Below, piece by piece: positions 673-64,000 of a DNA stretch of 64,000 nucleotides (position 1 is the stretch's first letter; the number at the start of each line of letters is the position of its first letter). A program made the translations under genes and the position numbers. This DNA comes from Isurus oxyrinchus (lineage: Eukaryota). The notes under the pieces were generated by a model. It was not told the DNA's origin, did not search any database, and saw only the letters and a list, made by a program, of their open reading frames with translations. The DNA lies in assembly GCA_026770705.1 (NCBI GenBank), contig JANJGN010000010.1, positions 41,168,001 through 41,232,000 on the forward strand, read 5' to 3'.

Positions 673-805
673 AGTCCTGAAGAAGTCATATTCAACTCAA
701 AACATTAACTCTTGTTCCTCCCTCCACAGATGCTGTCAGACCTGCTAAGTATTTCCAGCACTTCCTGTTTTTATGTCAGATTTCCAGCATCCACAGTATT
801 TTCTA
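673..805 (+). mobile_element. Penelope-like element terminal repeat fragment with a decayed hammerhead motif
   Basis: ctgaagaagtc...aaacattaact...cacagatgctgtcagacctgct...tttccagcatccacagtatttt is homologous to the tail of the element at 38720-38853. Confidence 0.75.
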
Positions 806-924
806 TTTATTCATGTCCATAATGTAATTGTGGACATTCCGCGAGTTTGGTTGACAGCTGCTAGAAAGCATTAATAGAAGGCTGAGAATGAAAATGTGCT
901 TTTCTATCCAGGGTTCAGTGCCGA

Positions 925-1370
925 GACAATAGAACACAAAAAAAAAATTAGGAGCAGGAGTACACCATGTGGTCCGTTGAGCCTGTTGCACCATTCAGTA
1001 TGATCATGGCTGAGCTTGGATTTCAATTCCACTTTCCTGTTGGCCCACCATTCCCTGATGGACCAAAAATCTGTCCTTCCCAGCCTTAGGTATATTCAAC
1101 ACAGGAGCATCGACAACCCTCTGGAGTAGACAATTCAAAAGATTCAAGACCCTTTGAGTGAAGTAATTTCTCCTCATCTCAGTCCCTTATCTTGAGACTA
1201 TGCCCCCCCTGTTTTAGACTCCCCGACCAGCAGAAACAATCTCTCAGCATCTACCCTCTCAAGCCCCTTCAGAATCTTGTATGTTTCAATGCCCCTCATT
1301 CTTCACCCCAGAGAATACAGGCCCAATTTACTCAGCCTCTCATAGGACAACCCCTTATCCCAAGGACCTT
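925..1370 (-). mobile_element. CR1-type LINE 3' end
   Basis: Reverse complement resembles the + strand CR1 3' ends at 42440-42965 and 53340-53710 (tcagccatgatc...ctcctgctcct tail). Confidence 0.75.
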
Positions 1371-1400
1371 AGTACTGCCTCCATTGGAAGTATATCCTTT

Positions 1401-2626
1401 TGTTATGATCCCAGCTAATGTTACCCCTGGACAAGCCTGATTGCAGAGTGAAACCCAGCTTGATAGATCTGAACTTTTATTTGTTTGTTTAGATATGTGG
1501 AGAGTACTTAACAGAGTCACAGGAGTCAGCTGATGAACTTTTAACAAAAGAATAAAACATTTATTAAACAAGAAAAGATTAACTCTATTACAATCCTCCT
1601 TCACCCACAACTATATCCTTAAAGACATACAGATTTGTAAGAATAACATAAGTTACAAAAGCTATCTTATACTCTAATGTCCACAGTAAGTGCATAGTCC
1701 ATGTAACAATAGGTGACCCGTGGTCAGACACACCACACTCTGAAACCAAGTGACAGATGCCACCTTAACCGTAGGCTATGGATCTCTCATCAACTACCCT
1801 CAGACGCTTGTCGTACTGTGAGACAACCAGTCTCACTAAACTCCGCCTTTCACAGGAGGGTTTCAATTGCCATGCTTTAAGAACTCACTTTAGAACCTTC
1901 TCCCAAACTGACGCTTTCCCTCAGATGCCTTCTGGGTAAGGGTTCACCTCCAAGGTTTTGAACTTTCATTCCGATGTTCCTCTCCCTTGGGTCACCACAT
2001 GCACTCAAGCTGTCTTCCATGCATTCTTCCTCACTGACTCAGCCGTCAACAGTACCACTGCTTCACATGCCATAGCAGTGTTACAGACCTTCAGTTGTCT
2101 CTTTGGACCTTCTTGCCTCTTGCAAGTTGTTGAGATTTAAAGAGACTAAAGTTGCAGAAATCAGATTTAAAGCAAGAAGCTTGGAGCCTTTCTCTTTGCC
2201 TCTCACTCTTAACTTCATTAACAGGACCTTTTCCCAGGTTCTTGTCCTTCCTTTGACTGGAAGGTCTTCTTGAGACTTTCCCCTGTTCCACTACCCTGTA
2301 TTTTTGGAGTTTTTCTTTAGCTTTTCTTTAGCTATCTGTCTCCTTTGTTCCAATCTCCCCTGGCAGCTACTTTCAAAACCAACTGAACTCAAAACAGCTT
2401 CCAAAATCAAACTGCTGTTTCTAGCTTTTCTGTGGGAGTCACCCTTGTTGCTAGCAACAGCCCAATTCTTCTATTCTTGTTTGTTTACCTTTGTTGCAAC
2501 AGTGGTATAAACCTGATTAGAAATGCAGTCATCTTTTAAAGTGAAACTAAAACTCAATTTGACCTTTCTCAACACGATACAGAAATACAAAGCAAACTTA
2601 AGCAAAACTAAAACTGTTTCCTAACA
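1401..2626. mobile_element. Probable solo LTR (~1.2 kb)
   Basis: Starts TGTTA and ends TAACA; AATAAA/TTTATT near 1551-1565. No clean TSD (cttt vs ctca). Confidence 0.45.
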
Positions 2627-4144
2627 CTCATAAAAATACTAACATAACTTACCTGAATCATAAAGCAGTGCTAAAACATTAAGCAGTAATGAAAATTATT
2701 TTACCCATCCATGTGCCTTTCATGTTTCTGCACCCAAATTACTGTTCAAAAATGATGCCACTAATGCTTCTGTATGCTCAAAGTTTCCAGACAACTGGTC
2801 TTTCTGAACAATAGATTTCCATACTGGAGAGGTTACAATGTACTGTTTGTCCCTTGGCACCTATAAAGAGTTGGAACTGGTTAATGTTTTAGGTGCCGAT
2901 CCTTCATTGGAACTTAAAACGTGAATACTAGGAAAAGGGAAGGGGAGAACAAGTGTAAGTCATGAGTCAGGTACGCTAACTGCCATTGCAAGTTCGGCCA
3001 GCTCGAGGCCAGCCAAGGTGGAAAGGTAGGTTCAGGGTGGGAAGTAACTGTGCACACTAATGTGGTAGCCCCTGGCACTACATTAAAGTGAATTTTCAAA
3101 TAAAAGCTTAACTGCTTTCAGACTGCTTTCACAGTTACCAATGATTAGAGTGAGAAAAGGGAATTGAAAAATTTGTCAATAAAAGTTGTGAATATGTTTC
3201 AGCAACTTCAGGAAAGGCTCCAGAGATGGATGCAGGAGCCTCATTTCAGTGTTGAAATGAAGTCGACAACCATTTCAAGCAGCTGCAATAGCTACCTAAA
3301 ATTAGGCCCTCCCGAATTCCTCACTGGTTCAGGTGTGCATTCATGGAGGGCTCTGTCCTGCCCACTGTAAAGTTTGTTGACATTACAATGATGCTGAATT
3401 TAGACCCAAGTTTCTGAAAATATTTATCGACTTGGCGCAAAGCCAAGTGGTCAGCTTGTGTAGTTACAGTGTGAAAATGTTACATGGGCAAACGTGGGTA
3501 TAATTTATAATGGGTAAAATCTTGACAGAATTGTGACAATTGGAAGTGATAAGTGACACCATTTTTACAAAGATCATATTCAATATAAAAGATTCAAGTG
3601 AATTGATGCATCTGGGCCTGTTTGTGTCCTATTGATCACAGATGGCATAAAATGTTTGTATGATGTCAGCTAGCTAAGTTTTGCAGACATTGAAGTTTTG
3701 CTGCTGATTTAGTGTTTGCATCAGTATTCTGGCTGCTTTATGGATTATTGGGTTACATTGACAGGAGGGGTAATGTGCAGTCAATGGTAAAATACAGATT
3801 AACTTTATATAAACAGTCTGTTTCATGCCATCAGTGATCCGAAAGTGTAGCAATGTTTTTCCATTTCCAATATTCTCTCCTACTGAAGTTGAGACTTGCA
3901 GAGCTAAATTTCACTTGTGCTGAGAAACCTAGTTGACAGAACTTCACAACTGATCCAGGTCCTGCTCTTGCCTGTTTATCCATAGCAGCAGTTACTGGAT
4001 AGTGGTCAGGTGCAGAAAAGGGGACATTGTTTTTTGCTTTGTTTTTGGGTCTCTTTTAGCCAACTATTAGTATCCATGATGAGATCAGCAAACTTAGCAC
4101 AAAATTGAAATTGAACATTTGATCTTTTTCTTTATTAATTTTTA

Positions 4145-4440
4145 AAAATTCTTTCACAGGATGTGGGCTTCACTGGGTAGGCCAGCATTTTTATTGCTCT
4201 TGAGGAGATGGTGGTGAGCCACCTTCTTCAAATGCTGCGGTTGATATGGTCTAGGTGCACCCACAGTGTTGTTAGGGTGGGAGTTCTCAGGATTTTGACC
4301 CAACTATAGTGAACTAACAGTGATGTAGTTCCAAGTCAAGACGGTGTGTGGCTTGTAGGGGAACTTGCAGGTGGTGGTGTTCCCACGCATCTGCTACCCT
4401 TGTCCTTGAAGGCGATGGAGGTCATGGATTTAGAAGTTGA
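4145..4440 (-). mobile_element. 3' end of a CR1/Zenon-like LINE that shares its tail with the tRNA-SINE
   Basis: ggatgtggg...ggccagcattt tail; homologous to 43400-43680 and 61985-62260. Confidence 0.65.
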
Positions 4441-13566: not shown

Positions 13567-13763
13567 AAAAACTCAGCAGGTCCGGCAGCATCAGCGGAGA
13601 AGAAAAGAGTTGACGTTTCTAGTCCTCATGACCCTTCGACAGAACTAGTACTCGAAACATCAACTCTTTTCTTCTCCGCTGATGCTGCCAGACCTGCTGA
13701 GTTTTTCCAGGTAATTCTGTTTTTGTTTTGGATTTCCAGCATCTGCAGTTTTTTTGTTTTTAT
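13567..13763. mobile_element. 197-bp fold-back Penelope terminal-repeat insertion
   Basis: 14-bp TSD CTCAACCTTTTAGT (13553-13566, 13764-13777); 57-bp inverted arms 13567-13623 and 13650-13706 with 3 mismatches. Confidence 0.9.
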
Positions 13764-13858
13764 CTCAACCTTTTAGTGTTGGGAATATAATGCAAACTTT
13801 TTAACTTACTAACCAAGAGATTTTTTAAGTTAATGCAAATATATTTATTTCTAATCAG

Positions 13859-13963
13859 ATTTCAAAACCAAGCAGCAAAGTCCTTAGCTTTGGAAAGAGG
13901 GAGCAGTCAAGCAAGAGGAACCCGAATGCACCGGTTGTGGTTAGAGGATGGCTTTACAAACAG
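13859..13963 (+). CDS. PLEKHA7: PLEKHA7 coding exon, start of PH domain (ISKPSSKVLSFGKREQSSKRNPNAPVVVRGWLYKQ)
   Basis: ctaatcAG acceptor and CAG|GTacag donor; 105 nt, phase 0/0. Translation matches the recalled PLEKHA7 segment SSKVHSFGKRDQAIRRNPNVPVVVRGWLHKQ. Confidence 0.93.
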
Positions 13964-15512: not shown

Positions 15513-15518
15513 GTTGGC

Positions 15519-18500
15519 ACCTCTCGTGCGCGCAGCTGCATGCTCCCCCTCTCTCTCGAACCCACGTGCTCCCTCTCTCACGCGCACGTCCACTCGCCCG
15601 CTCTCCCTCTCTCGCATGCGTGTCCCCTTGCCCACTCCCCCTCTCTCGCATGCGCTCTGTCCCCCCTCTTGCTCACACCTGCTCTCCCCCCTCTCATGTG
15701 CGCACTCTCTCCACCTCTCTCTCTCTCTCTCTCGTGCATGCTCTCTGCCCCTCTCTTGTGCATGCACGTGCTCTCCACTCCTCTCTCGCGCATGCACGCG
15801 CTCTCCACTCCTCTCTCGCGCACGCATGCGCTCTCCACTCCTCTCTCGCGCACGCATGCGCTCTCCACTCCTCTCTCACGCACGCGCGCGCTCTCTCCAC
15901 TCCTCTCTCTCATGCACGCGCGCTCACTTCACCTCTCTCTCGCGCACGCTCACTCCACCTCTCGCGCGCGCTCACTCCACCTCTCTCATGCACGCTCACT
16001 CCACCACACTCTCTCGCGCATGCGCTCACTTGTCTCTCTTGCGCACGCTCACTCCACCTCTCATGTGCGCTCTCTCCACCTCTCTCATGTGCGCTCTCTC
16101 CACCTCTCTCATGTGCGCTCTCTCCACCCCTCTCTCTCGCGCACGCGCTCTCCACCTCTCTCACGCGCGCTCTCTCCACCCCTCTCTCTTGCGCGCGCTC
16201 TCTCCACCTCCCTCTCTCTCGCGTGCGCTCTCTCCACCTCCCTCTCTCTCGCGTGCGCGATCACTCCACGTCTCTCGCGTGCGCTCTCTCCACCCCTCTC
16301 ATGCATGCGCGCGCACGCTCAATTCACCTCTCTCTGTCTCATGCGTGCTCATTCCACTTCTCTCGCGCGCACTCACTCTACCTCTCACTCTCTTGCGCAC
16401 GCTCTCACCACATCTCTCTCTCTCGCACGCTCTCCACCTCTCTCGTGCGCTCTCTCCAGCCCTGTCTTGCGAACGCGTGTGCTCTCTCCACCCCTCTCTT
16501 GCGCATGCACTCACTTCACCTCTCTCTCGCGTGCGTGCACTCACTCCACCTCTCATGCGCGCGCGCTCTCCACCTCTCTCTCGCGCGCACTCTCTCCACC
16601 TGTCTCTCGCACACGCGTGCGTTCTCTCCACCCCTCTCTCGCGCAGGCGCACGCTCTCTCCACCCCTCTCATGCACGCGCGCGCATGCTCAATTCACCAC
16701 TATTTGTCTCTCGCGCGCTCCTTCCACCTCTCTTGCGTGTGCTCACTCCACCTCTCACACTCTTGCATGCACTCTCTCCACGTCTCTCTCGCGCGCGCTC
16801 TCTCCAGCCCTCTCTTGCGTATGCATGCGCTCTCTCCACCCCTCTCTCGCGCATGCGCTCACTTCACCTCTCTCACATGTGTGCACTCACTCCACTTCTC
16901 ATGCGCGCGCGCGCGCGCTCTCCACCTCTCTCCACTCTCTCCACCTGTCTCTCACACACGCGCGCGTTCTCTCCACCCCTCTCTCTCGTGCACACGCGCT
17001 CAAGCCACCTCTCGCGCCGCGCGCTTTCTCCACCACTCTCTCGTGTGCCCTCTATCTTCACCCCTCTCTCGCGTGCGCGCTCACTTCACCTCTCACGCGC
17101 GCTCACTCCACCTCTCATGCGTGCGCTCTTCCCACCCCTCTCTCACACGCGTGCTCTCCCCACCTCTCTCTCCCACGCACGCTCTCCCCGCCCCTCTCTC
17201 TCTCGCGCGCAGCGCGCACGCTCACCCTGCCGTTCTCTCTCCCGCGCGCGCGCTCTCTCCGCCTCTCTCTCTCGCGTGCACTCTCCCCACCCCTCTCTCT
17301 CCCACGCGCTCTCCATGCCCCCCTCTCTCTCGCGCGCGTGCTCTCTCCGCCTCTCTCTCGCGCGCGTGCTCTCTCCGCCTCTCTCGCGCGCAGCGCTCTC
17401 TCCGCTCCTCTCTCGCGCGCGCTCTCTCCGCTCCTCTCTCTCGCGCCATGCTCTCTCCGCCCCTCCCTCTCTCATGCACTCGTTCTCTCCGCCCCTCCCT
17501 CGCGCCCCCGCTCTCTCCGACCCTCTCTTGCGCCCACGCTCTCTCTGCCCCTCTCTCACGCCCGCGCTCTCTGTCCCTCTCTCGCGCCCGCGCGCTCTGT
17601 CCCTCTCTCGCGCGCGCGCTCTCTGCACCCCTCTTGCGCGCGCGCTCTCTGCACCCTCTTGCGCGCGCGCTCTCTGCACCCTCTTGCGCGCGCGCTCTCT
17701 GCACCCCTCTTGCGCGCGCGCTCTCTGCACCCCTCTTGCGCGCGCGCTCTCTGCACCCCTCTTGCGCGCGCGCTCTCTGCACCCCTCTTGCGCGCGCGCT
17801 CTCTGCACCCCTCTTGCGCGCGCGCTCTCTGCACCCCTCTTGCGCGCGCGCTCTCTGCACCCCTCTTGCGCGCGCGCTCTCTGCACCCCTCTTGCGCGCG
17901 CGCGCTCTCTCCACCCCTCTTGCGCGCGCGCGCTCTCTCCACCCCTCTTGCGCGCGCGCGCGCTCTCTCCACCCCTCTTGCGCGCGCGCTCTCTCTCCAC
18001 CCCTCTTGCGCGCGCGCTCTCTCTCCACCCCTCTTGCGCGCGCGCGCTCTCTCCACCCCTCTTGCGCGCGCGCGCTCTCTCCACCCCTCTTGCGCGCGCG
18101 CGCTCTCTCCACCCCTCTTGCGCGCGCGCGCTCTCTCCACCCCTCTTGCGCGCGCGCGCTCTCTCCACCCCTCTTGCGCGCGCGCGCTCTCTCCACCCCT
18201 CTTGCGCGCGCGCGCTCTCTCCACCCCTCTTGCGCGCGCGCGCTCTCTCCACCCCTCTTGCGCGCGCGCGCTCTCTCCACCCCTCTTGCGCGCGCGCGCT
18301 CTCTCCACCCCTCTTGCGCGCGCGCGCTCTCTCCACCCCTCTTGCGCGCGCGCGCTCTCTCCACCCCTCTTGCGCGCGCGCGCTCTCTCCACCCCTCTTG
18401 CGCGCGCGCGCTCTCTCCACCCCTCTTGCGCGCGCGCGCTCTCTCCACCCCTCTTGCGCGCGCGCGCTCTCTCCACCCCTCTTGCGCGCGCGCGCGCTCT

Positions 18501-21120: not shown

Positions 21121-21437
21121 GCATGGAGCATGCTTGCGGGCCTGATTCTGGCCTGTGGGCCTCCTCTTGGACAGCTTCAATTATATCTACTCCTTTGTTG
21201 TTTCCTCACCGCCCTGCAACATATTCCCTTTCAGGTCTGTGTGGTCATATGTATAAGTTTTATGTATATAATTTCATCCTGAACTGTATTGTTGAATTTG
21301 TTCATACTATCTATCCTTCCGTGTAGTGCATTCTAGATCATAAACAACGTACCACATAAAAACGATTCTTGCCATTTCTCTCTATGGTTCTTAATTATGT
21401 TAAAAATGTGCTCCTCTGATGGAAATAATTTCTGTCC

Positions 21438-24708: not shown

Positions 24709-25834
24709 AATTGAAAATATCTGTAACTGCTCCATTTAGTCTCATGCACCTTCTAAGTGGAAGTCTTTGGCTGCCTGAAATGTGTGGCTTTTAAAACTGT
24801 TGAAGGTATGCAGAACCTGCAAGTTTCTGTTTGATTTGGTGTTCTTTACTTAGGCCAAGCTCTATGCAGTGTAGATGTAGCTCACAGCCCTTGTTATTCT
24901 TTTAGTGCTTGAAACAAACAAATGCTGTATTGAGCAAGATTGAGATTCCTGCCAACTACAGCTTTGAAACATTGGTGGTCACTTAGGGAGAATGGACAAT
25001 AGCTTGGATAAAAAAAGATTGATGTTATAAATTAGTGTACAATTTATCTGTTAGGATGTTGTTTACTTTTTAACACTTGTGCAAAATGTATAGCACAATA
25101 GTACACTAACCACTGCATGATTGCACTATTGTTTAGTGCTAGCAAAATTACATCAGTCACGCTGCAACAAAATATTTATTTCCTCTGATCAGACGATGGG
25201 GTGTCATGAATTTGCTTGTTTGTAAAACTTGTAATTTATATTCACTGCATTGCAATATCTGAAACTGTTCAGGGGGTGATAAATCAGCATAAATTATGCA
25301 TCTATCACACAAAATCACATTAATACTGCAAATTGCAGATAGGATGGCATTCTAAATTTTTGGGATGAAGTCATAAAATAGTGGAAAACATGGCAAGTCT
25401 ATCAGCCTCTTAAAAAGGATTTTGATCCTGTTCTTCTGTTTTTTTTATTTTGGTGCTATATTTTAACATACTTATTAACATATTTGAAATTTTTACCTAT
25501 TGTCCCCTCTCTTTTTCAGTCCTATAATGTCATCTGCCTTCCTTTTACAGATTTGGCGAAGACTGCACTTGAAACATTAACTTGTCTATCCTTTAATCGA
25601 TCTGTTATCTATTTCCTGCATTTTCTTTCTTATTTCAGATTTTCATCCTTGTTACCTTGTTTAAATCACTCGCCATTATTTTGTTATGTTAGCACAATCT
25701 GGACTCTCAACTACATTTTACTTAACTTCCAGCTGCTGTTATAATCTCTGTTATGTTGCAGGGATATCAACACCCTTGTGGTGTTCATTAAAGCCACTCT
25801 GACTTGATGGATGATTGTTTGTTTGTACTTATAG

Positions 25835-25907
25835 GACAGTTCTGGAATGAGGCTGTGGAAACGTCGGTGGTTTGCACTCTCTGAATATTGCCTGTTCTAT
25901 TACAAAG
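25835..25907 (+). CDS. PLEKHA7: PLEKHA7 coding exon, PH domain (DSSGMRLWKRRWFALSEYCLFYYK)
   Basis: ttatAG acceptor and AAG|GTGAGT donor; 73 nt, phase 0/1. Canonical PH motif WKRRWF. Confidence 0.95.
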
Positions 25908-28246
25908 GTGAGTACCGAAATGGCACTTACTCCTTAAAAAGACAAGTTGGATAAACAGGAGCCATAGACTGATTGTCACTTTTGAAATGAAGGGCTGGCT
26001 TTTCGTTACTGAGGCAAGTAACTTATGTTGGGAAGTTTCTGGACTTGGTGGGACTTGCCTCGCCATAAAGGGCCCCGTTACACACTGTCTTCATTCCAGG
26101 GAGGCAGGGGCATAAATGAGTCAGGTCTGCTGCCTCCAGAGGCAATTCATAGGTGGCCACAGAGGTGGGTGAGTGCCAAGGTGGGCTGGTTACATAAGGC
26201 CCACCTCAGTTCTCTGAGACTTCGGCCCAATTTTACAAAAGGCTGTTAAGCCCTCTAAACCCCATGCCCCCTGCCTCCCTATGTCCCCTTCACAGCCACT
26301 CAGTCGGTATCAATTTTGGTCAGACCTCAGCAACCATATAGAAATGGAAAAAACATTAAACTTCTAACAGTCTAATTGAGCTCTCACTCATACATGTTCA
26401 ATACAGAAAAGAACTCTCATTCATGAAACCCGTTCAAAGATTTTAAATCCCCCCAATCTGCTCAGCAGCTACATCAAAGACAGCTAATCCTTTAATCGTT
26501 TCTTAAAACTGCCAATCAAAATGTGAACACAGACCCCCCCAAGAAGTGTTTTTTTTTACTTTTTGAAACTCAGCCAAACATTCATAACAGGCTCAGTTGT
26601 AATAACAGCCCTTGGGAATGCTAACCATAAAGTCTATTGAAACTACAGGAATAGATTCTTTTGGTTGTTTTCTGAACTACACCAGATGGCCTGTCAATCA
26701 ATTCATTCCAACAGCATGTTTTTTCTTCTATGCTAATGGACATCTGCAGTCTAGTTTTCTTTTATTTTTAAAGGGCTAGGGATTTAAATAACTTCAGATC
26801 ATGACACTTAAACAGATTTTATCCACATTTGCATCTCCTCCATAAATTCATGACTCCCATACTGCCATTTAAGGCCCTTGGAACAGTAAAAATGATTAAA
26901 CTCGTGGCTAATTTCAAATTGGCCAGCAGATTCATGTTTCCCACCTGTCTGATTCATGCCAACCCTGTTTCCCCTTGCAAAATCTGCAAATATCTGGCCC
27001 TAGTTGTTACTTGATGTAATGTCTGTCAACTCCATCCCTGTCAACGGTGATATTCAAATACAATGGTGATTTAGAATCTTTTATTTTCCATCCATTCTAG
27101 TGGTTTATAAGTATGAAACCTCATCAATATTATAATAATTGACAAATTAATTTGTTTGTGTGCACTCTCCTAGTGGCTCAGAGGGAAGTGTGTCACCTTG
27201 TGCTCTGTAGGTTGGAAGGAAAAAGTAAGCCAGGGCAACTACTTTTGATCACTATTCAGTAGCCATCTCCCTCAGAAGTGGTGGTCAGATAGATAACAAG
27301 AGTCTGCAACCTATGTTTACACATGAACACTGGGCTGAAATCCTGGGGGTTTGCTGGAGCATGGGGAGCCGTATGCTGGAGTAGTTTCAAGGGAAGAGAA
27401 GATAGAAAATTGGAGAGGGGAGAGAACAGCAAAAACTACAAATTAATTCAGCAGTTCATTTTACGTAAACAGATGATATTGATTGCTGACCTGTCTCTGT
27501 TAAATAGACATTGCTAAACTAATGGCATGAGTAGGTCTGCTGCTACCATTACTATGCTAGTGTTTAATTCATGTGAATGATTTGTAGAATACATAATACA
27601 TTGATAGTATATAACAGTAACATTTAATTAGAAAGGGAAGGTGAGTTCTAATCTGCTATTACTGTTAAGTGTTTAATAGAATGTGTTTTTACATTTTTCT
27701 AATTTATATTTGATTTTATCAATGAAAATCTATTTTAACTCTAGCCTGGTTGCTATTTGAATATGCATCTCAAAACTTTTAAATACTTTCGTTGAACTGG
27801 AAAAATAATCTTTTTGTTTGGGAGACGCAGAGGAAATCAGCCAGAGTTTCACCTTCTGATTGATATCAAATAGCAACTTTTGCAAAGTACTTATGGTATT
27901 TATGGTTGCGAGTGATAGAATATGTTTTGATGGTCTCCATGTTTAAATAGTCTACCTACATTCACTGTCTAGTCATGTGTAGCTGAGGTATGGGATGGCT
28001 GCTGGGCCCATAGAATCATACCCTGGGATGATTCACTAACCTCAGTATATGAGGAGCTAATTAGGGGGAAATATAGAAGAGTCAACTTTTATGCCTTGAT
28101 GAAAATTTGTCTTGGTAAAACTAAGTGTGCTGCCGTGTTTTGGTAAAGTTGTTGAAAGATTTTCACCCTGTGAATGTAATAAAGTCTGTAAACGTGAAGT
28201 AAATGAAAAGAAATGATGACTTTGTAATTTGTTTTGAACTACACAG

Positions 28247-28347
28247 ACAGCAGAGAGGAAACAGTGTTGGGCAGCATTCCTTTGCCTAGTTATGTAATCG
28301 CACCAGTTGAACCTGAAGATCATATAAGTCGCAAATATGCTTTCAAG
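28247..28347 (+). CDS. PLEKHA7: PLEKHA7 coding exon, PH domain (DSREETVLGSIPLPSYVIAPVEPEDHISRKYAFK)
   Basis: acacAG acceptor and AAG|GTac donor; 101 nt, phase 1/0, in frame with both neighbours. Lies within ORF 28234-28476. Confidence 0.95.
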
Positions 28348-29701
28348 GTACGACTCTGCAATAAATTTAGCATGTACAGAGATTTAAAAGCTCTAATTGG
28401 TCAAGAATTTAGTAAAGCTATTAGTTACAGTGTTACATATAAACATAAAAGTAGATTTGAAAGAGCTCACAGTTAATTTTCCCATTGTGGTACTGAACCA
28501 TACAGATGAATAACTACTATTGATGCCCAAAATGTGCTCCTACTGGTGCAGGCATTGACTGTGAATATTTAATCAGGTGAACTCTTCTTGACCTCAAATA
28601 CTCTTGAGGGGTCAAGAAGTGGAGATCATCTGACATTTGGGCCAGAAAGTCAGGCCCATGGATTTTAAGCCCTGGATCTCGCTGATAGAACAATCAAATG
28701 AATGAAGCAAAATCAGAATCAGCTATTTGTCACTACCTTGCATCACTTGAGAAGTTTGCTAGTCATCTGTGTGAATGCTGAAAACAGGAGACTACCATCA
28801 TGAGTATGACTTAAATCTTGTATTGCTCTTGATGTTGACATTTACATTATAATCATTAGAAATTAGCATTAAATTGTTGTCTCCAGATTGTAAGATATTT
28901 CTAAATAGTAACTGGAAATACTGAGAGCATTTAAACTTTGCGAGAATGAAATTGAGTGATTCTAATCATTATTGTTGGTTAGTTATTGATTAATTGTTTG
29001 GTACAATTTGCCAATAGCTATTAGTTTTCCAGTGCTCTGACTGAGGCACAAGCTAAAATAAAGCATGAGTCACTACATTCCCTATTTCTGATTGGCTAGC
29101 TCACTATAATATTATTGGTCTGTTTTGAGCTTATAAACACTGACCTATTTAAAACTGTACAATTCTAACTAGTCACAATCTCTTAGTGTCGAGTTATCTT
29201 GACTTAGTTTTCTGTTTGGCTCATTATATTCATTGCATAAAAGGAGCTACAGCTCTGAACTTTCAAAAGTGTTGAACAGATGTTTCAAATGAAATATTTA
29301 ATAGCATTAATGTTCTTGTTAATAATTAATCTGGTGGCTTGAAGACATACTGTTATCATATAACATCTGGATCTAGATTTCATATAATTGATGGGGTTAT
29401 TCAATGACAGATGATCTTGTCCATCCAGCCCAATTGTCTTACCTGTGCATCAAATATAAAGTCTCCCCAACCCATTCAAAATCATGTGATCTCCTAGGAA
29501 AGGTGAACAAACATGTTTGAAACCCGAACAAACCTGAGAACTTACTCTCTTCCTGCCGCCATCCCCCCCATCCAATCACAACTGTAGTCTGGAAGACCGC
29601 CTGGCCCTGAATTCATTGCATTAGTTACCTTTTGTACGAACTGATCTCTGCCCAACCACAAACAGGTCCAGCTCTCACTTGAGAACTGGAATCTGCACCA
29701 T

Positions 29702-36648: not shown

Positions 36649-38853
36649 TTAAGTAAATAGCCTTAAGTATAAGTATATAGCCATTGTTTCCAGGACTGTT
36701 ACTGATCTCATCTCCTCTGGAGATCTTCCTTCCTCAGCTTCCAACCTGATAGTCTCCCAAGCTCAGATGGCCTGCTTCTACCTCCTACCCAAAATCCACA
36801 AACAGGACTGTCCCGGCAGACCGATTGTGTCAACCTGTTCCTGCCCCACGGAACTCATTTCTTGCTATCTTGATTCCATTCTCTCTCCCCTTGTCCAGTC
36901 CCTTCCCACCTACATCAGTGATTCCTCTGACACCTACATCATATCAACAATTTCCAGTTCCCTGGCCCCAACCGCCTCCTCTTCACCATGGACGTCCAAT
37001 CCGTCTAGAGCTCCATCCCCCACCGGGATGGTCTGATGGCTCTCTGCTTCTTCCTTGAACAGATGCCCAAACAATCCCCATCCACCATTACTCTCCGTCT
37101 GGCTGAACTTGTTCTCACACTGAACAATTTCTCCTTAAACTCCTCTCACTTCCTCCAAATAAAAGGTGTGGTTATGGGTACCCACATGGGCCCCAGTTAT
37201 GCCTGTCTCTTTATGGGGTATGTGGAACATTCCTTGTTCCAGTCCGACTCCTGCCCCCTCCCAGAACTCTTTCTCCGGTACATCGATGATTGCTTCGGTG
37301 CTGCTTCATGCTCTCGTCTGGACCTGGAAAAATTTATTAATTTTGCTTCCAATTTCCACCCCTCCATCATTTTCACATGTTCCATCTCTGACACTTCCCT
37401 TCCCTTCCTTGACCTCTCTGTCTCAATTTCTGGTGATAGACTGTCCACCAATATCCATTACAAGCCTACAGACTCCCACAGCTACCTCGACTACAGCTCC
37501 TCACACCTAACTTCCTGTAAGGACTCCATCCCATTCTCTTAGTTCCTTTGCCTCCATCGCATCTGTTCTGATGATGCCACTTTCAAAAACAGCTCCTCTG
37601 ACATGTCTTCCTTCTTCCTTAACCGAGATTTTCCACCCATGGTGGTTGACAGGGCCCTCAACAGTGTCCAGCACACCTCCCGTGCATCCACCCTCACAGC
37701 TTCCTCTTCCTCCCAGAAACATGATAGGATCCCCCTTGTCCTCACATCACCCCACCAGCCTTCGCATTCAAAGGATCATCCTCCACCATTTCTACCAACA
37801 CCATGATGCCAGCACCAAACACATCTTCCCTTCACCCCCTGGCGGCATTCCGCAAGGATCATTCCCTCCGGGACATCCTGCTCCACTCCTCCATCACCCC
37901 CTATACCTCAACCCCGTCCCACGGCACCTTCCCATGCAACCACAGAAGATGCAAAACCTGCCCCTTTACTTACCCTCTCCTCACCGTCCAAGGGCCCAAA
38001 CACACCTTTCAAGTGAAGCAGCATCTCACTTGCACTTCCCTCAATTTAGTCTACTGCATTTGTTGCTCCCAATGCGGTTTCCTCTACATTGGAGAGACCA
38101 AATGCAGACTGGGTGACCGCTTTGCAGAACACCTGCGGTCTGTCCGCAAGCATTACCCAGACCTCCCTGTCGCTTACCATTTCAACACTCCACTCTGCTC
38201 TCATGCCCACATGTCCATCCTTGACCTGCTGCATTGTTCCAGTGAAGCTCAACGCAAACTGGAGGAACAGCACCTCATTTTCCGACTAAGCACTTTACAG
38301 CCTTCTGGACTGAATATTGAGTTCAACAATTTTAGATCATGAATTCTCTCCTCCATCCCACCCCCTTTCTGATCACCCCTTTTTTTCCAGTAATTTATAT
38401 AGATTTTTCTTTTCCCACCTATTTCCATTATTTTTAAATGTTTTCCTTCCATTGTTTTATCCCTACCTTTTAGCCTATTTCGATTCCTTCACCCCACCCC
38501 ATCCCCACTAGGGTTATCTGTACCTTGCTTGTCCTGCTTTCTACCCTTAATTAGCTCATTCCTTAGATAATATCACCACCGTCAACTCTTCTTTGTCCTT
38601 TTATCTAAGACATCGTTTGGCTATCTCCACCTATCACTGGCCCTCTATCCAGCTCTACCTCTCCCACCCACCCACCCCCCTTAAACCAGCTTATATTTCA
38701 CCTCTCTTCTATTTTTACTTAGTTCTGTTGAAGAGTCATACGGACTCGAAACGTTAACTGTGTTCCTCTCCACAGATGTTGCCATAGCTGCTGAGTTTTT
38801 CCAGGTATTTTTATTTTTGTTTTGGATTTCCAGCATCCGCAGTTTTTTGCTTT
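36649..38853 (+). mobile_element. 5'-truncated Penelope-like retroelement (RT + GIY-YIG endonuclease, frameshifted) with terminal repeat
   Basis: FYLLPKIHK..PGRPIVS, QIKGVVMGTHMGPSYACLFMG, RYIDD, YKPTDSHSYLDY and VYCICCSQCGFLYIGETKCRLGDRFAEH. 15-bp TSD TAGCTTAAGTATAGT (36634-36648, 38854-38868). Confidence 0.95.
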
Positions 38854-42644: not shown

Positions 42645-42744
42645 AATTAAAAACATTGTGCTGGAAAACCTTAGCAGCCTTGGAGTATCTGTGGAGAGAG
42701 GAACAGAGTGAACATTTCAAGTCCAAAATGATTTCTTCAGAGCT
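42645..42744 (-). mobile_element. Penelope terminal-repeat fragment inserted in the CR1
   Basis: Reverse complement contains CTGAAGA...GAAATGTTCACT...ctctccacaga. Confidence 0.65.
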
Positions 42745-44377: not shown

Positions 44378-44602
44378 CTGGAAAAACTCAGGTTTAACAG
44401 CATCTGTGGAGAGAAAGACAGAGTTAACTTTTCAAGTCCGTATGACTCTTCAGAAAAGAAGAGGAGTTCTGAAGAAGAGTCATACGGACTCAAGACTGGT
44501 TAACTCTGCCTTTCTCTCCACAGATGCTGTCAGACCTGCTGAGCTTTTCCAGCATTTTTTGTTTTTGTTTCAGATTTCCAGCATCCACAGTATTTTGCCT
44601 TT
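44378..44602. mobile_element. 225-bp fold-back Penelope terminal-repeat insertion
   Basis: 15-bp TSD AACCACTAATCAATG (44363-44377, 44603-44617); two head-to-head terminal-repeat copies. Confidence 0.9.
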
Positions 44603-45334: not shown

Positions 45335-45520
45335 TATAGATCAGAAAATACTGGAAATAATCAGCAGGTCTCACAGCATCTGAACAGAGAGTATCAGTTA
45401 TTATTTCAGCTCTGTGATCTTTCATCAGGAGTTCTTGTGAAAGATCGTTGGCCTGAAAAGCTAACTCTCTCTGCCTCTCTCTTTCTCTCTCCACAGATGT
45501 CAGACCTGCTATTGCTGACA
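45335..45520. mobile_element. Older fold-back Penelope terminal-repeat insertion inside a decayed CR1 (~44770-45650)
   Basis: A minus-strand copy with a CTGATGA core followed by a plus-strand copy ending tccacagatgtcagacctgct. Confidence 0.6.
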
Positions 45521-46100: not shown

Positions 46101-46134
46101 TGGGATGATGCTTACAAAGGATGGAGGATGGAAG

Positions 46135-46940
46135 GTTGGACAGGGGAGCATTGGAGTGTTAAAATGGCAAGCGACAGGAAGGTCTGGGTCAAACCTCTAC
46201 ATCGGAGAGACCAACACAGACTGGGTGACCGCTTTGCAGAACACCTTCGGTCTGTTTGCAAGCATGACCCAGACCTCCCTGTCGCTTGCCATTTTAACAC
46301 TCCACCCTGCTCTCTTGCCCACATGTCTGTCCTTGGCTTGCTGCATTGTCCCAGTGAAGCTCAACACAAACTGGAGGCACAGCACCTCATCTTCCGACTA
46401 GGCACTTTACAGCCTTCTGGACTGAATATTGAGTTCAACAACTTTAGATCTTGAACTCCCTCCTCCATCCCCACCCCCTTTCTGTTTCTTCCCCCTCCCT
46501 TTTGTTTTTCCAATAATTTATATAGATTTTTCTTTTTCTTTTCCCACCTATTTCCATAATTTTTAAATGTATCCACCCATGGTTTATTTCACCCCACCCC
46601 CACTAGAGCTACCTTGCTTGTCCTGCTCTCCAATCTTAATTAGCACATTCTTTTAGATAATATCACCTCCTTCAACACCTCTTTGTTCTTTTGTCTGTGA
46701 CAACTTTTGGTTATCTCTTCCTATCATTGCTTGTTTGTCCCAACAACCTCCCTACCCGCCCCCCCCAAACCAGCTTATATTTCACCCCTTTCCTATTTCT
46801 ACTTAGTTCTGTTGAAGGGTAATGAGGACTTGAAACGTCATCTTTGCTCTTCTCCGCCGATGCTGCCAGACCTGCTGAGTTTTTCCAGGTATTTCTGTTT
46901 TTGTTTTGGATTTCCAGCAGCCGCCGTGTTTTGTTTTTAG
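46135..46940 (+). mobile_element. Short Penelope-like element (GIY-YIG end + 3' UTR + terminal repeat) with a 5' inversion
   Basis: LYIGET / RLGDRFAEHLRSV...GLNIEFNNFRS is near-identical to 38085-38342. 46152-46191 is the reverse complement of 46265-46304. Confidence 0.92.
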
Positions 46941-47994: not shown

Positions 47995-49200
47995 ATAGCA
48001 AAATGCTGTGAATGTTTGAAATCTGAAATAAAAATAGAAATGCTGGAAATACTCACCAGGCCAGGCCAGATCTGTGGAGTGAGAAACACAATTAACAATT
48101 CAGGTTGATGATCTTTCATCAGAACTAGAAGAGGTTAGAGCCATAAGAGATTTTCAAGTACAGAGACAGGCAAAAGCAGGGGGATGGGGGCTTGCATGGG
48201 GGACAACCTGTGAAGTAGCTGTGGGGAAGAACAAAAGGGAAAATCTCTGATAGGGTGAAAACCAGAGGAGATTAAATAATAAAAGGAATTGTGATGTAAG
48301 GCAAAATGAGAAGGAGTTGGAACAAGTAAGGAAACAAACGATGAGTATGAAGGAGTTGTAAATGGGAATTGTAGAATCTACTGGAGTCTAGTGCCATCCA
48401 GAACCAAATGACCTCTACTCTCATTTTTGTTCTTTTTTTAAAGATCTGAAATTCTTGCACTCCACATTCAGTGTGGAAGTCTGTTAAGTGTCTAATCAAG
48501 ACATGAGCTGCTGTTCCTCCAGTTTATGTTGAGCATCATTGGAATAGGATTGGAGGCTGTTAATGGAGAGGTCAGAGTGAAAGTGGGGCAGAAAATTAAA
48601 ATGACAGGTGAATAGAATCCCAGGTTCATGCTTTCAGACAAAACAGTGGTGATCACCTAAGTAGGCACCCATTCCATTTCCTTTCATTTAGGGAATGTGG
48701 GTGTCGCTGGCAAGACCAGCATTTAGTGATCATCTGTAATTACCTTAGAGTAGTTTGTTGGGTGTCACTTTTGCGAGTACAACTGAATAGCTTGCTAGGC
48801 CATTTCAGAGGGCAGTTAAGGGGTAACCATACTGGTGTGTGTCTTGAGTTGCATATGGGCCACATAGGATAAGGACAGCAGATTTCCTTCCATAAAGGAC
48901 ATTATTGAACCAGGGTTTCTATGACAAATCAGGTGGTTTCAAAGTCACCATTACTGATACCAGCTTTTAATTCCAGATTCATTTAACTAACTGAATTTAA
49001 ATTCGTCGGCTGCCATGAAGGGATTTGAATTTGTGTCTCCAAATCACTCAGCTACCATAACCCCATTGTAGAGGAGACTGCATTGTGAGCAGCAGTTATT
49101 GTATCCTAAATTGAAAAAACTATATGTAAATCGCTTTTTCACCTGGTAGAAGTGCTTCGGGTTCGGATGATGAGAAGGGAGGAAGTAAAAAAGTGATAAG
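47995..49200 (-). mobile_element. Older Penelope-like element, interrupted by a SINE
   Basis: Minus-strand terminal repeat 48000-48126 with a CTGATGA core; ctgttcctccagttt is the reverse of the KLEEQ codons; GIY-YIG remnants continue at 49040-49200. Confidence 0.7.
48680..49040 (-). mobile_element. tRNA-derived SINE (related to 59011-59363)
   Basis: atgtgggtgtcgctggcaagaccagcattt tail and ttttaattccagatt...gggatttgaa head in reverse. Confidence 0.7.
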
Positions 49201-51828: not shown

Positions 51829-51867
51829 TGGTCTGAAGAAGAGTCACATGGACTCGAAACGTTAACT
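51829..51867 (+). ncRNA. Minimal type I hammerhead ribozyme motif (best-conserved core in the window)
   Basis: CTGAAGA (51833-39), A, stem II GAGTC/GACTC, GAAA (51856-59), C-GTT triplet, then GGT/ACT-type stem I remnant. Fits the minimal hammerheads described in Penelope-like elements; activity untested. Confidence 0.7.
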
Positions 51868-51966: not shown

Positions 51967-52230
51967 TGAAGGTTATGCCCCTTTGGCTGCTGAGACTCCA
52001 AGTGAAGTGATTTTCACCAATGCTAACCTGAGGGGTGCAAAAACATTCCAATTGCCAGCATTGATATATCTCTTATTCTCTTTTTCTCCCTCCCTCTCTC
52101 CCCTTTTCAAATTAGCAGAAAAATGCACACACAAGGAAATAAAATCCTGTGTCACAGCTCCTCTGTTGCTGAAAAGTAGTTTAGTGTTTTGAAACATGTC
52201 TAAGTCATTTTTTTTTCTCTTTCCTTCCAG

Positions 52231-52406
52231 GCTACCCATACAGGCATGCGGACATACATTTATAGTAAGAATTCTATTCTTGGCTCGCAGGGAGATCACA
52301 CTGGCATGAGAACTTATTATTTCAGTGCAGATACGCAAGAGGATATGAATGGCTGGATCAGGGCTATGAACCAAGCTGCACTTATGCAAGCATACACTTT
52401 AAAGAG
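52231..52406 (+). CDS. PLEKHA7: PLEKHA7 coding exon, end of PH domain (ATHTGMRTYIYSKNSILGSQGDHTGMRTYYFSADTQEDMNGWIRAMNQAALMQAYTLKR)
   Basis: Long polypyrimidine tract plus ccAG; AG|GTcatt donor; 176 nt, phase 0/2. Has the TYYFSADTQEDMNxW motif and the 20-aa insert that distinguishes PLEKHA7 from PLEKHA5/6. Confidence 0.95.
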
Positions 52407-52459
52407 GTCATTCTGAATTTTTATTAAACTTATTAATTTGTATGTATTAAGAATATAAA

Positions 52460-57290: not shown

Positions 57291-57396
57291 GACTTCCTTC
57301 TAATTTGAGGAGCAATATAGAAGTACTTTCTGGGAAATTTTGTTAGTTTTCAAGCTATGTGTACTTCTATTGAAAACTTTTTTTTACTATTAGCAG

Positions 57397-57873
57397 AGAA
57401 CCAGAAAAAGCAGGAAGGCCTCGCCTTACTCAGAACAACCATATCAACTCATACAAGGGCTTTACTAAGGCAGAAGTGCTTCAGAGCAGAGAGAATGCTG
57501 GGAAGCTTGATGAAAAGTTTGGGTTTGAAAAACATGAAGAAATGAAGAAAGAATGGAATGAGGAAGAGAGATATGGCTTCCAAAAGGATCCTGTAGAGAT
57601 ATTGGCCAGAAAAGGGAATAAGAACAACATGCAAGCAAGTTCCGTGGAGAGCGACGTGTTTACAGGATATCGCCCTTTGTCTCAACCACATCCGACACAG
57701 CGCAATGGCACAATTCAGCCTCCCACAAATTCCACTTTGGTAGACCAGAATGGTGCCAATGTTTATCGGAGGGGGTTTGTGCCCCGAACTGGAACAGAGA
57801 AAAATGTCCAGCGGAAAAGTTCCATGGTGCAAGTGGAGCACTGGATGAAATCTCACAAAGGAGACGGCAAAAG
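57397..57873 (+). CDS. PLEKHA7: PLEKHA7 coding exon after the PH domain (EPEKAGRPRLTQNNHINS...YRRGFVPRTGTEKNVQRKSSMVQVEHWMKSHKGDGK)
   Basis: TAGCAG tandem acceptor and AG|GTcaga donor; 477 nt, phase 2/2, open frame. The C-terminal part matches recalled PLEKHA7 YQRAFPPRTNPEKHSQRKSNLAQVEHW. Confidence 0.92.
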
Positions 57874-60069: not shown

Positions 60070-60420
60070 TCTTCTCTGGGTCCTCTCATGACTGAAGAGT
60101 TTGATGTGAGATCAGCATGGACGTCCACTGGCAGTTTATGTTGCCTTTGTTGCTACTTCGGGTAACTACTTGCACCACCTCTGGCCTTCCTCTGGGCACA
60201 TTGGATGTTGCAAGTTTGGTGTAGATGGTTCTCAAAACATGCTGAACCAAATTGTAATGCTTGCCTCTGCAAGGACTGGTCGACTGCAGTATTTGCTGGG
60301 CTCTTTTTAGGGTATCCTTGAATTGTTTGCACAAACCACCTTGATTGTGAACTTAATGCAGGCCACACATGTGCCAGAATGTATTGTGGGGAGGGAGGTT
60401 GGGAAAGTACATCCATGTGA
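60070..60420 (-). mobile_element. RTE-clade LINE 3' fragment
   Basis: Minus-strand NQGGLCKQFKDTLKRA and HIKLFSHERT resemble the RTE C-terminal motifs GGQ.KRFKDTLK and IGL.SH.RTH. Confidence 0.55.
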
Positions 60421-61984
60421 ATATAGCAAAGTTAAATCTGTAGAACTTGCTGCAACAAACAGTGGGCTTACTTCACCTCAATGCCTTTCAAATAGGCTCT
60501 TCTGTCTCCAACTTTGGGCTATTCTTTGATCAGAGAGACCGTTTACAGGAATATTAGTTAGAATCAGTATGATATGAAGTTGACAAATGGCTTTGTGAAA
60601 TAATGATTGAATGGGTGTTATTCTATAAGCAATAAGTGACAATAAGATGGATTCGCCGTCATTTATTATGTCTAATGTAGTTAACTCTGATATATAGTAT
60701 CCTCACGTACTATCAGACATTCCTACAAAATAATTTCAAGTAACTGCTGTACATTCCCTGAGTGCAGCTATTGTCTCAGTCGGATAATAATTTAATAATT
60801 CTCTTGCCATGTGTATCATTTTATTTCCATTTGACAATATTCAGAAAAGTCTACACATAAAATTTTGCTTTGCCATGACAGTTTTGAGGTATTTCTTCCT
60901 TTATTTAATTGTAATAGCTAGTTATGTTCCTAACAATGTTAACGCTTTCAATGCCCTTAGAGCATCGATGTACTTAAGTATTCCAAAACAATAAGTTCAT
61001 TAAACAATTTTATCTCCATAACTATTTAGTTTTTAATATAAATTGTGCAGCATTTTAGTCTCCAGTTGCTTGAAGCACTCAGCAATTCTACTGCTCCTGA
61101 GCTTAATTTCTTGAAACAAAACAATCTGTCCTTGAGCTTTGCATGAATTAAACTCATCTCCTGTACTGGGACCATTTGCATTTGTGTTGAGGAGAGAATT
61201 ATTTTGCAGGCCAAGATAAATCTCTTGATTTTTTTTCCCCCTCTAGTTCTTTAAGGGAAGTATTTAGCCTCTATTCAGTATATTTCCTGAGGGTTCAACT
61301 AAGAATAAGCCTTCAAACCATTGGTTTCAGCCCCAAAGTGCATTTAATTGTCTTCTGCACATTTCAGGTGTCTGATTCTGCTATCATCTTAGCACCTGAG
61401 AAATAATGAAGCTTCTTTTGGTACGCTGACCTCCTCTGACAGTGCTGATGGCTGGTGCAGATTTGAAATTCTTACCTTTTACTGTGTGCCTAACTACAAT
61501 TGTTTTCACTAGTGATGCTGGAGCAGTACAGAAATGGGGATACAGCAATAAGCAAATGGTCAAGCTGGGTCCCTCCCATTCTGTGCTGTGTACAAACCTC
61601 TGGTCAGATTTTAAGATGAACCAAAGGTGCTCTACCTGAAAAGAGGAAAGAGTTTTATTTAATGTTGAAATGTATTTTCTCATGATTTTCAGCAGTAGAA
61701 AATATGATGGGACAGTATCTTGTGGGCTGAGAGGAAGTCAATATCCAAAGAGTTTTGAGCCTAAGTTACTGGAAGTGGAATTTGGTTTCGCATTATTTTC
61801 CATGCTACTTGTTCGGCTTTTTAAAGCTTAGGCCAAGGATTTCAGCTGCCAGGTTTTTCACTTTTTTCTATTTTGCTATTATTTGGAGTGAAGATGATGA
61901 TATGGGGGTTTCATTAATGACAACCATGTAGCTGCACAGCCTCCAGCACACAACTGGATAGCCTTAATGACGCTTTTTAAAATT

Positions 61985-62870
61985 TATTCGTTTGCATGAT
62001 GCAGGAATTGCTGGCAAGGCCAGCATTTTTTGCTCATCCCTAATCACCACTGAAAAAGTGATGGTGAACGTTCTTGAACCATCTGTGCGGTGAAGGTGCT
62101 AGTGCAGTGCTATTAGGCAGGGAGTTTTAGGATTTTGACCCAGTGAAGATGAAAGAGAGGCAAATTATTTCCAATTTAGGATGGTGTTAGACTTGGAGGG
62201 AAATAGTGGGGTTTCTATATATTTCCTGCTCATGTTAGAGGTCATGGGTTTGGGAGGTGCTGTTGAAGAAGCTAGGGTGAGTTGCTGCAGTACATTTTGT
62301 GGATGGCACACACTGCAGTGAAGGTGTCCTGATGGTGGAGGGAGTGAAGGAAAGGGAAAAGAGTAATTTAGCACTTTGAAAGTTATTATTTCAGGCAAAG
62401 ATTTGAAAATAAATTAAAGGTTTAGGAACACTTTAAAAAAAAATTCAGCCAAATGAAAAGTGATCGAATTCTTCTTTGTGTGTTAGATTTAGAGAGCTCT
62501 GATGATTCTTTCACAAGTTCACTGTAGAACTTTACAAACCATAGTGTGAAGCACTTAACAGGGTACCGATCAAGTGGACTGCTTTGTCTGTCTTGTGTTG
62601 AGCTGCATGAGTGTTGTTGGAGTTGCATTCATCCAGGAAAGTGGAGAGTATTCCATCGTGCTCCTGAGCTACAGGAGGGTTTCAGAGATTCAAGAGGTGA
62701 GTCACTTGTTCCAGAAAACCCAGCCTTAGACTTGTCGTTCTGCCCACAGTATTTACGTAGCTGGTCCAGTTAAGTTTCTGACCCGGAGGATGTTGAAGGC
62801 AGGGGATTCGACAGAAGTGATGCCACTGAATGTCAAGGGAGGTTTTAGACTATCTATTATTGGAAAATTC
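61985..62870 (-). mobile_element. CR1/Zenon-like LINE 3' fragments
   Basis: Homologous to 43400-44040. Confidence 0.7.
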
Positions 62871-63432
62871 CACTCCCTCTTCACTCACTCTATCCCTGTC
62901 TCTGGCATCTATCTAGGATGAACCACATTGTTCAGTATCTATTTCCAGGGTTTTAACGTCTCCCGATTCCATGCCTGTTGGTCTGCTAAAACTGTACCTT
63001 TGTTACCTCCAGACTTCACTATTCTAAAGCTCTCCTGGCATAGCTTCCACATTCTACCCTCCCTAATTGTGAGGTCATCCAAAACTCTGCTGCCCATGTT
63101 CTAACTTGCACCAAGTTCTATTTACCCACCACCTCTGCAGTATCTCAATTTTAACACTTGTTTTCAAGTTCCCTCGCTATCTCTGTTATCTCCTCCAGCT
63201 GCGTAAACCTTCAAGATATCTGCAGTCCTCTAATTCCAGCCCCTTGAGTACCCCTGATCTTAATCTCTCCACCATTGGTAGCCGTGCTTTTAGCTGCCTA
63301 GGCCCTAAGCTCTGGAATGTACATCCCTCAACTTTTCAACTCCCTACCTCGCTTTCTTCCTTTAAGGAACTTCAGCTTAAAACCTACCTCTTTGACCAAA
63401 CTTTTAATCATCTGCCCAAGTATCATCTTATG
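62870..63432 (+). mobile_element. L2 LINE 3' portion
   Basis: ORF 63106-63558 reads IGSRAFSCLGPKLWN...LSSFK..LKTYLFDQ. Confidence 0.8.
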
Positions 63433-63434
63433 TC

Positions 63435-64000
63435 AACAACAGAATTACCTGGAAAAACTCAGCAGGTCTGGCAGCATCGGCGGAGAAGAAAAGAGTTGAC
63501 GTTTCGAGTCCTCATGACCCTTCGACAGAACTTGATTTCGAGTCCAAGAAAGAGTTGAAATATAAGCTGGTTTAAGGTGTGTGTGTGGGGGGTGGAGAGA
63601 TAGAGAGAGAGAGAGGTGGTTGTGTAGACAAACAAGCAGTGATAGAAGCAGATCATCAAAAGATGTCAGCGACAATGGTACAAAAGAACACATAGGTGTT
63701 AAAGTTAAAGTTGGTGATATTATCTAAACGAATGTGCTAATTAAGAATGGATGGTAGGGCACTCAAGGTACAGCTCTAGTAGGGGTGGGGGGAGCATAAA
63801 AGATTTTAAAATATTTAAAAATAATGGAAATAGGTGGGAAAAGAAAAATCTATATAATTTATAGGGAAACAAAAAGGAAAAAGGGGGAAACAGAAAGGGG
63901 GTGGGGATGGGGGAGGGAGCTCACGACCTAAAGTTGTTGAACTCAATATTCAGACCGGAAGGCTGTAAGGTGCCTAGTCGGAAGATGAGGTGTTGTTCCT
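63435..64000 (-). mobile_element. Young Penelope-like element 3' end (runs off the window)
   Basis: Reverse complement of the GIY-YIG end (EQHLIFRLGTLQPSGLNIEFNNFRS), the 3' UTR and the terminal repeat. Confidence 0.9.

Follow-up and report, generated by a model that had tools for sequence, protein, structure and literature searches.

Hammerhead-shaped ends of a Penelope-like element in the PLEKHA7 introns of the shark Isurus oxyrinchus, and an A-to-U change at position 6 of their core

Introduction

Penelope-like elements (PLEs) carry minimal hammerhead ribozyme (min-HHR) motifs in their pseudo-long terminal repeats (pLTRs), and these hammerheads and their supposed dimers have already been described (PMC4209133, PMC6765202, PMC6155905). 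The reason for their presence in PLEs is still open (PMC8557442). Here we report on such motifs in 64,000 nt of contig JANJGN010000010.1 from the shark Isurus oxyrinchus (positions 41,168,001 to 41,232,000; hereafter the window), which covers part of the gene PLEKHA7 in a genome of 4.98 Gb, and on a change at position 6 of the hammerhead core in their parent element.

Natural hammerheads are slowed by an A6C change and shifted toward Mn2+ (PMC3088659, PMC7151607), and in a full mutagenesis, mutants of the CUGA region had low activity, with no rescue except by a C3-G8 swap (PMC9901934). Min-HHR dimers showed low activity in vitro (PMC4209133), and of nine dimers from Xenopus only a single one cleaved (bioRxiv 10.64898/2026.07.22.740005). 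In the green anole, the PLE hammerhead needs protein in order to cleave, and insertion in vitro does not depend on this hammerhead (PMC11167929).

The shark motifs resemble the PLE min-HHRs of Cervera and de la Pena (2014; PMC4209133) in their short stem I, 5-bp stem II, extra base between positions 9 and 10.1 and G10.1-C11.1 pair, in a palindromic 15.2-16.2 without loop 3, and in their occurrence in both pLTRs of tandem elements and in many solo and inverted copies. They differ in that the dominant shark subfamilies have U6, whereas all 44 alignment rows examined from that paper, with no shark among them, have A6; the descriptor given there would largely miss the U6 forms. The parent element is similar to the endonuclease-bearing (EN+) PLEs Neptune and Nematis (Craig et al. 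2021; PMC8557442), with reverse transcriptase (RT) followed by a C-terminal GIY-YIG endonuclease (EN), two cysteines inside GIY-YIG, a CX4CX2C linker, tandem and inverted pLTRs and two 3'-end clusters about 35 bases apart, but its copy number is very high. As in the anole element PAc (PMC11167929), the hammerhead lies in the pLTR upstream of the 3' ends and the template is apparently uncut RNA; PAc, however, is a Poseidon element whose hammerhead has been demonstrated to cleave in the presence of protein, whereas the active shark element has U6. A natural change at core position 6 also occurs in the A6C hammerhead of phage Bcep176 (PMC3088659, PMC7151607), but this is a single phage copy, measured as slow in Mg2+ and fair in Mn2+, whereas the shark A6U is present in more than 100,000 min-HHR copies. 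The amniote hammerheads of RECK and C10orf118 (PMC3088659) likewise lie within introns of protein genes; they are single, conserved and active, unlike the shark copies, which are repeats, either decayed or recent, and of which the insertion at 13567 (the one site compared among the 13) is absent from a close relative or another individual. In the literature listings searched, neither a U6 core nor a PLE hammerhead from a shark was described, although the work of Lunse et al. (2017) on variants of PLE hammerheads may hold such cases. The hammerhead in PLE pLTRs is known, and the core change in the dominant mobile subfamily appears to be new.

Results

A genome-wide pattern search yielded 120,188 hammerhead matches, compared with 2 for the reversed control. 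Core position 6 was U in 105,544 of the matches and A in 11,228; the U6C7 form with C17 accounted for 72,915, and the oldest A6 family is among 2,666 additional matches in which the spacing is shorter. The canonical CUGANGA core with A6 was confined to older subfamilies, and the intact tandem elements carried U6, in the U6C7 form. The initial annotation, which wrote the core as CTGnnGA, had recognized the motif correctly, but its nn masks the non-canonical U6 in the window copies at 13608, 38721, 46805 and 63494, and its reading passed over the A6-to-U change.

A tree built from the last 600 bases of the open reading frame (ORF) in 62 EN-linked copies, rooted at the midpoint and with one fold-back copy scored twice, formed a ladder that leads from A6A7 via A6U7 and then U6U7 to U6C7. 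Divergence to the own consensus fell along the subfamilies (7.3, 4.8, 3.2, 3.1 and 1.3%; 46 of the 62 tree copies, grouped by hand from the tree). These relationships indicate that U6 was derived from A6 and that the subfamilies replaced one another in the order A6A7, A6U7, U6U7, U6C7. Exact A6 revertants in the youngest background numbered 65, similar to G6 (53) and below A4 (112), indicating that no revertant subfamily expanded. For the insertion at 13567-13763, an empty site, seen as a single contig joining 13552 to 13764, was present in two public runs of two studies, indicating that the U6 family moved recently; the family stayed mobile after the A6-to-U change. A check of position 6 in four runs of four organisms showed no other letter at 5% or above, and was not counted, because the same result was obtained at position 7, which is variable in the genome.

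Two further features of the subfamilies were observed. In the A6A7 subfamily (loci L083, L093, L101 and L107; window 42744), the 5' strand of stem I often reads AGCT instead of AGTT, which gives a C-A mismatch, so that the canonical-core subfamily is not perfect either. The youngest subfamily has a second copy of the 3' arm of stem II plus GAA (GGACTCGAA) just 5' of stem I (window 63533-63547(-); L179:5044-5058). This duplicate was found in 33/64 U6C7, 4/29 U6U7/ATGAG and 0/95 older copies, many copies being too short to include it, and could compete for the 5' arm of stem II during transcription.

Covariation was analyzed in 38 copies in six groups, pre-selected for an intact core. In stem II, 97% of cells were paired (20-45% in slid controls); its first pair changed from G-C to A-U in one event (10 rows) that separates the oldest family from the rest, and its second pair occurs as G-C, G-U and A-U. 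Stem I was 89% paired, with one double change in one row. RNAalifold recovered stem II and did not predict stem I. Covariation between subfamilies was found for stem II and almost none for stem I. All subfamily forms have GAAAC-GUC or GAAAC-GUU (GAAA box, A15.1-U16.1 and NUH site), although several window copies have lost GAAA, and all have ACGU as the palindrome to which stem III, lacking loop 3, is reduced, as the initial annotation had described. The extra base between 9 and 10.1 and the G10.1-C11.1 pair are present, with A-U at 10.1-11.1 in the oldest family. A tertiary contact of loop 2 with position 1.7 (A-U versus C-G) had looked possible but was rejected because position 1.7 varies freely in U6U7/ATGAG (G 15, T 9 and A 5 of 29).

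Between the early U6 and the youngest consensus, none of the 31 constrained hammerhead positions had changed, compared with 4 of the 7 free positions (P=0.0005), and over the same interval 75/339 sites of the 3' untranslated region (UTR) had changed (P=0.0006 versus the constrained sites). Selection on the hammerhead fold after A6U is likely but not proven. The hammerhead-ready fold was predicted to lie 1.3 kcal/mol from the best fold in a youngest copy and 3.8 kcal/mol in a U6U7 copy; these are two copies only, and single-copy folding, which depends strongly on the flanks, was used as a hint only.

Insertion starts were compared with the predicted cleavage site. Genome-wide, insertions starting at the predicted cut were not enriched (301, versus 347 at a control site 8 bases upstream), and the inspected breaks were true truncations in 14/20 cases at the cut and 15/20 at the control. 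None of 89 young copies, a biased set because most loci were chosen by motif, started within 14 bases of the predicted cut, and young insertions run across it. The lack of excess starts indicates that insertions were likely copied from uncut RNA.

In the same 89 copies, 5' starts clustered at the start of the hammerhead: 44 lay within -11 to +2 of C3, with the mode (13) at the first stem I base. In D. virilis an intron ends at the hammerhead start (PMC4209133); a start site or splice acceptor at this place in the shark is a guess. The 3' ends formed two clusters past the predicted cut, at 60-76 bases (45/89) and 97-114 bases (32/89), and match the optional PLE tail.

The derivation of the window motifs from a PLE, proposed in the initial annotation, was borne out: an ORF with RT and GIY-YIG lies between tandem motif copies, and stem II covaries between subfamilies. 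The full element has the order pLTR-ORF(RT, GIY-YIG)-pLTR in tandem (loci L179, L180 and L181); L179 (G000:C1:460500-470400) and L180 have open frames of 926 aa, and their adjacent units are 99.5% identical. The 926-aa ORF matched RVT_1 (E 7e-08) and GIY-YIG (E 9e-04, just under the curated cut-off), and that of L179 contains a CX4CX2C linker at aa 792-800 and a GIY-YIG motif with two internal cysteines at aa 831. Because a CX2-5CxxC linker marks Neptune/Nematis and is given in the same source as absent in Penelope/Poseidon (PMC8557442), the linker points to the Neptune/Nematis type rather than to Poseidon. The window motifs are minimal type I hammerheads in the pLTRs of a PLE that is, by domain order, cysteines and linker, of the Neptune/Nematis type.

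RT/GIY-YIG remnants end in window copies at 36649-38853, 46125-46940, 48090-48672 and 63434 onward. Three insertions have target duplications of 14-15 bp and a fourth has one of 13 bp (by eye), and the genome is littered with short, often inverted 3' pieces that bear target duplications of 13-15 bp. The copy number is very high, with 149,589 first-look EN candidates in the genome. A non-LTR retrozyme, that is, tandem head-to-tail hammerhead repeats without an ORF, was rejected as the source, because the window copies are solo, inverted or joined to ORF remnants.

All 11 motifs of the initial annotation were present, intact or decayed, in the place and orientation given there. Profile search of the window returned 15 rows, 13 of them with E<1e-6 (7 sense and 6 antisense to PLEKHA7); two weak rows (E 0.14 and 0.22) were left out of the count of 13. 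Two copies were additional: the core of 13649(+) lacks its 5' half, and 45430(+) is decayed. A strict descriptor gave 4 matches in the window versus 2 in 30 dinucleotide shuffles combined. In a covariance-model check, an Rfam scan of the window gave 8 matches at E<=1, none to a hammerhead family; the matches were dismissed as chance miRNA-like hairpins on fold-back insertions. None of the 13 window copies (0/13) combined the canonical core with intact stems. The stems of 38721(+) and 63494(-) are perfect, but position 6 is U, and copies other than 38721, 51829 and 63494 have lost GAAA, stem pairs or the palindrome. The earlier statement that stem II keeps its pairing thus holds for the subfamily forms and fails for most window copies, several of which have it broken. 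The sense arm of the head-to-head insertion at 63434 bears a second hammerhead. All features are listed in Table 1.

Table 1. PLE-derived features and PLEKHA7 exons in the window (PLEKHA7 is on the + strand).
Position	Strand	Feature	Remarks
673..710	+	Decayed min-HHR	Older A6 subfamily; without G12; breaks in stem II and in the palindrome
13567..13763	.	Fold-back pLTR insertion	197 bp, youngest subfamily; 14-bp target duplication 13553-13566/13764-13777
13608..13646	-	Min-HHR	U6 C7, GUC site; stem II unpaired at its first position; antisense to PLEKHA7
13649..13763	+	Right arm of 13567 fold-back	pLTR piece without 5' half of core
13853..13963	+	PLEKHA7 exon	tblastn, approximate limits
25823..25906	+	PLEKHA7 exon	tblastn, approximate
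28240..28350	+	PLEKHA7 exon	tblastn, approximate
36649..38853	+	PLE, 5'-truncated, frameshifted	RT remnant, GIY-YIG EN 37728-38342, 3' UTR, pLTR; 15-bp target duplication
38721..38759	+	Min-HHR	Stems I and II intact, U6 U7, GUU site; sense
42707..42744	-	Decayed min-HHR	A6; damage in stems and palindrome
44378..44602	.	Fold-back pLTR insertion	Older A6 subfamily, 15-bp target duplication
44422..44457	-	Truncated hammerhead arm	Without 5' stem I strand; palindrome broken
44465..44505	+	Hammerhead	A6, stem II intact, GAAA box lost; sense
45396..45432	-	Decayed hammerhead	Oldest (AGGTC/GACCT) family; left fold-back arm
45430..45466	+	Decayed hammerhead	Oldest family; right fold-back arm
46125..46940	+	PLE 3' fragment	EN remnant 46212-46451, UTR, pLTR
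46805..46843	+	Min-HHR	U6 U7, GUC site, 1 mismatch each in stems I and II; sense
48090..48126	-	Decayed hammerhead	Oldest family, no GAAA; upstream, an EN remnant at 48442-48672(-)
51829..51867	+	Hammerhead	Sole copy whose core is fully canonical (A6) and whose stem II is intact; stem I 2/4 pairs; sense
52222..52404	+	PLEKHA7 exon	tblastn, approximate
57392..57871	+	PLEKHA7 exon	Approximate limits
63434..64000	-	Left arm of head-to-head insertion	Youngest subfamily; extends ~1.2 kb beyond window
63494..63532	-	Min-HHR	Stems intact, U6 C7, GUC site; 35-base core equal to that of intact tandem element L179; antisense

An exon product from the window was 96% identical to basking shark PLEKHA7. 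A further exon lies about 900 bp left of the window, and none was found within 9 kb 3' of 63532, so that copy 63494(-) is presumed to be intronic. The 13 copies in the window compare with a genome background of 6.2 per 64 kb, based on 53 matches in 55 stretches of 10 kb (550 kb) hand-picked at round coordinates; at least 13 matches per 64 kb arose in 5.9% of resamples of these stretches (P=0.06). Enrichment in PLEKHA7 introns was not shown on this basis, and the PLEKHA7 copies are ordinary retrotransposon debris at ordinary genome density.

We also examined the proposal that sense copies, paired by way of the palindrome, are active inside the PLEKHA7 pre-mRNA. A recognizable core and palindrome were kept by 3/7 sense copies (38721, 46805 and 51829, all in one 24-kb intron and 5-13 kb apart); two have U6, and the third has 2/4 stem I pairs. 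In a secondary-structure model, cleavage-type dimers of different copies had energies of -1.0, -4.3 and -7.0 kcal/mol, compared with -10.1 to -15.4 for the separate monomers, and sense-antisense duplexes of 65-89 bp with the four antisense copies of this intron reached -71 to -117 kcal/mol. The predicted difference between dimers and duplexes is wide, even though the model has no tertiary contacts. As no copy has the canonical core together with intact stems and duplex pairing outweighs the dimers, the proposal was not supported, and cutting of the PLEKHA7 pre-mRNA by intronic copies is predicted to be unlikely.

Other observations in the window concern RNA structure, splicing and repeats. The fold-backs at 13567-13763, 44378-44602 and 45340-45510 were predicted to form long hairpins of -103, -118 and -56 kcal/mol and are possible targets of A-to-I editing in the pre-mRNA. 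At 38756-38810(+), in a sense copy, a pyrimidine tract with CAG is followed 29 bases on by CAG-GT, which makes 38776-38804 a candidate cryptic exon within the PLEKHA7 intron. A GC-rich tandem array of 5.6 kb, with units of 24-30 bp, occupies 15520-21150 and has a block of opposite orientation near 19680-20130.

Discussion

We consider it probable that the motifs are hammerhead-shaped PLE ends that occur at ordinary density and likely do not cut host pre-mRNA, and that the dominant U6 form, predicted to be a weak ribozyme, likely keeps its fold for the element's own cycle. The element would be copied from uncut RNA; cleavage, if any, would be slow and would need a tandem partner or the element's protein; and intronic copies would decay neutrally and form long sense-antisense duplexes, not ribozyme dimers. 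Several points weigh against this interpretation. The window density was twice the genome mean (P=0.06), and three A6 leaves fell within the U6 part of the midpoint-rooted 600-base tree. Four-fold ORF sites had changed at 9/95, and compared with these the conservation of the fold is not significant (P=0.07). A 30-base block downstream of the hammerhead is equally invariant, indicating that other constraints act there too, and the unchanged fold after A6U and the move to a GUC triplet would fit continued catalysis equally well. We found no rate for A6U itself in the literature, starts at the cut site bear on insertion templates and not on all transcripts, and the pairing energies ignore tertiary contacts and proteins.

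We think it unlikely that U6 hammerheads remain active ribozymes in the tandem transcript of the element itself, with help from the PLE protein or from a metal, for example Mn2+, and that U6 tunes or delays cleavage instead of crippling it. In favor of such activity, the other core letters, both stems and the palindrome are unchanged across the U6 subfamilies, the changes from U17 to C17 and from U7 to C7 came after U6, and the predicted fold gap is narrower in the youngest of the two copies folded. Furthermore, A6C variants cleave well in Mn2+ (PMC7151607), and the need of the anole ribozyme for protein (PMC11167929) would be in accord with such help. The missing excess of insertions at the cut speaks against activity, as does the pairwise mutagenesis, in which nothing but the C3-G8 swap rescued the CUGA region (PMC9901934). 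We regard as improbable that the motif is a dead relic, kept through the short time elapsed or as promoter, splice or protein-binding signals, because changes were confined to positions that are free in the hammerhead model while the 3' UTR changed widely in the same interval. A relic would nevertheless agree with the non-significant comparison to four-fold sites and with the invariant downstream block; the 44 of 89 young copies starting near C3 point to another signal there, and Naiad PLEs thrive without hammerheads (PMC8557442).

That sense copies dimerize via the palindrome in the PLEKHA7 pre-mRNA, as the initial annotation proposed, and go on to cleave the intron and affect the host gene appears very improbable. 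It can draw on the three intact palindromes in one intron and on the low but present in vitro activity of min-HHR dimers (PMC4209133); it is opposed by the lack of a sense copy with both canonical core and stems, by the 5-13 kb between partners, by the four antisense copies that offer duplexes in the same intron, by the background density and by the balance of strands. The finding has no obvious bearing on PLEKHA7 itself.

For the family, we suggest tentatively, and with less than even confidence, that a vertebrate retrotransposon lineage fixed a change in a supposedly essential ribozyme base and then dominated a genome of about 5 Gb with the rest of the hammerhead under selection. U6 would then be either a new conditional ribozyme, dependent on protein or Mn2+, or its fold would be a non-catalytic mark of the RNA or of the start of short insertions. 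Descriptor scans that demand CUGA may miss most such motifs in this genome. The shark provides a graded natural series from A6A7 to A6U7, U6U7 and U6C7, with intact elements, in one line of descent, along which rates of cleavage and jumping could be compared, and the altered core of its dominant mobile subfamily makes the purpose of PLE hammerheads testable.

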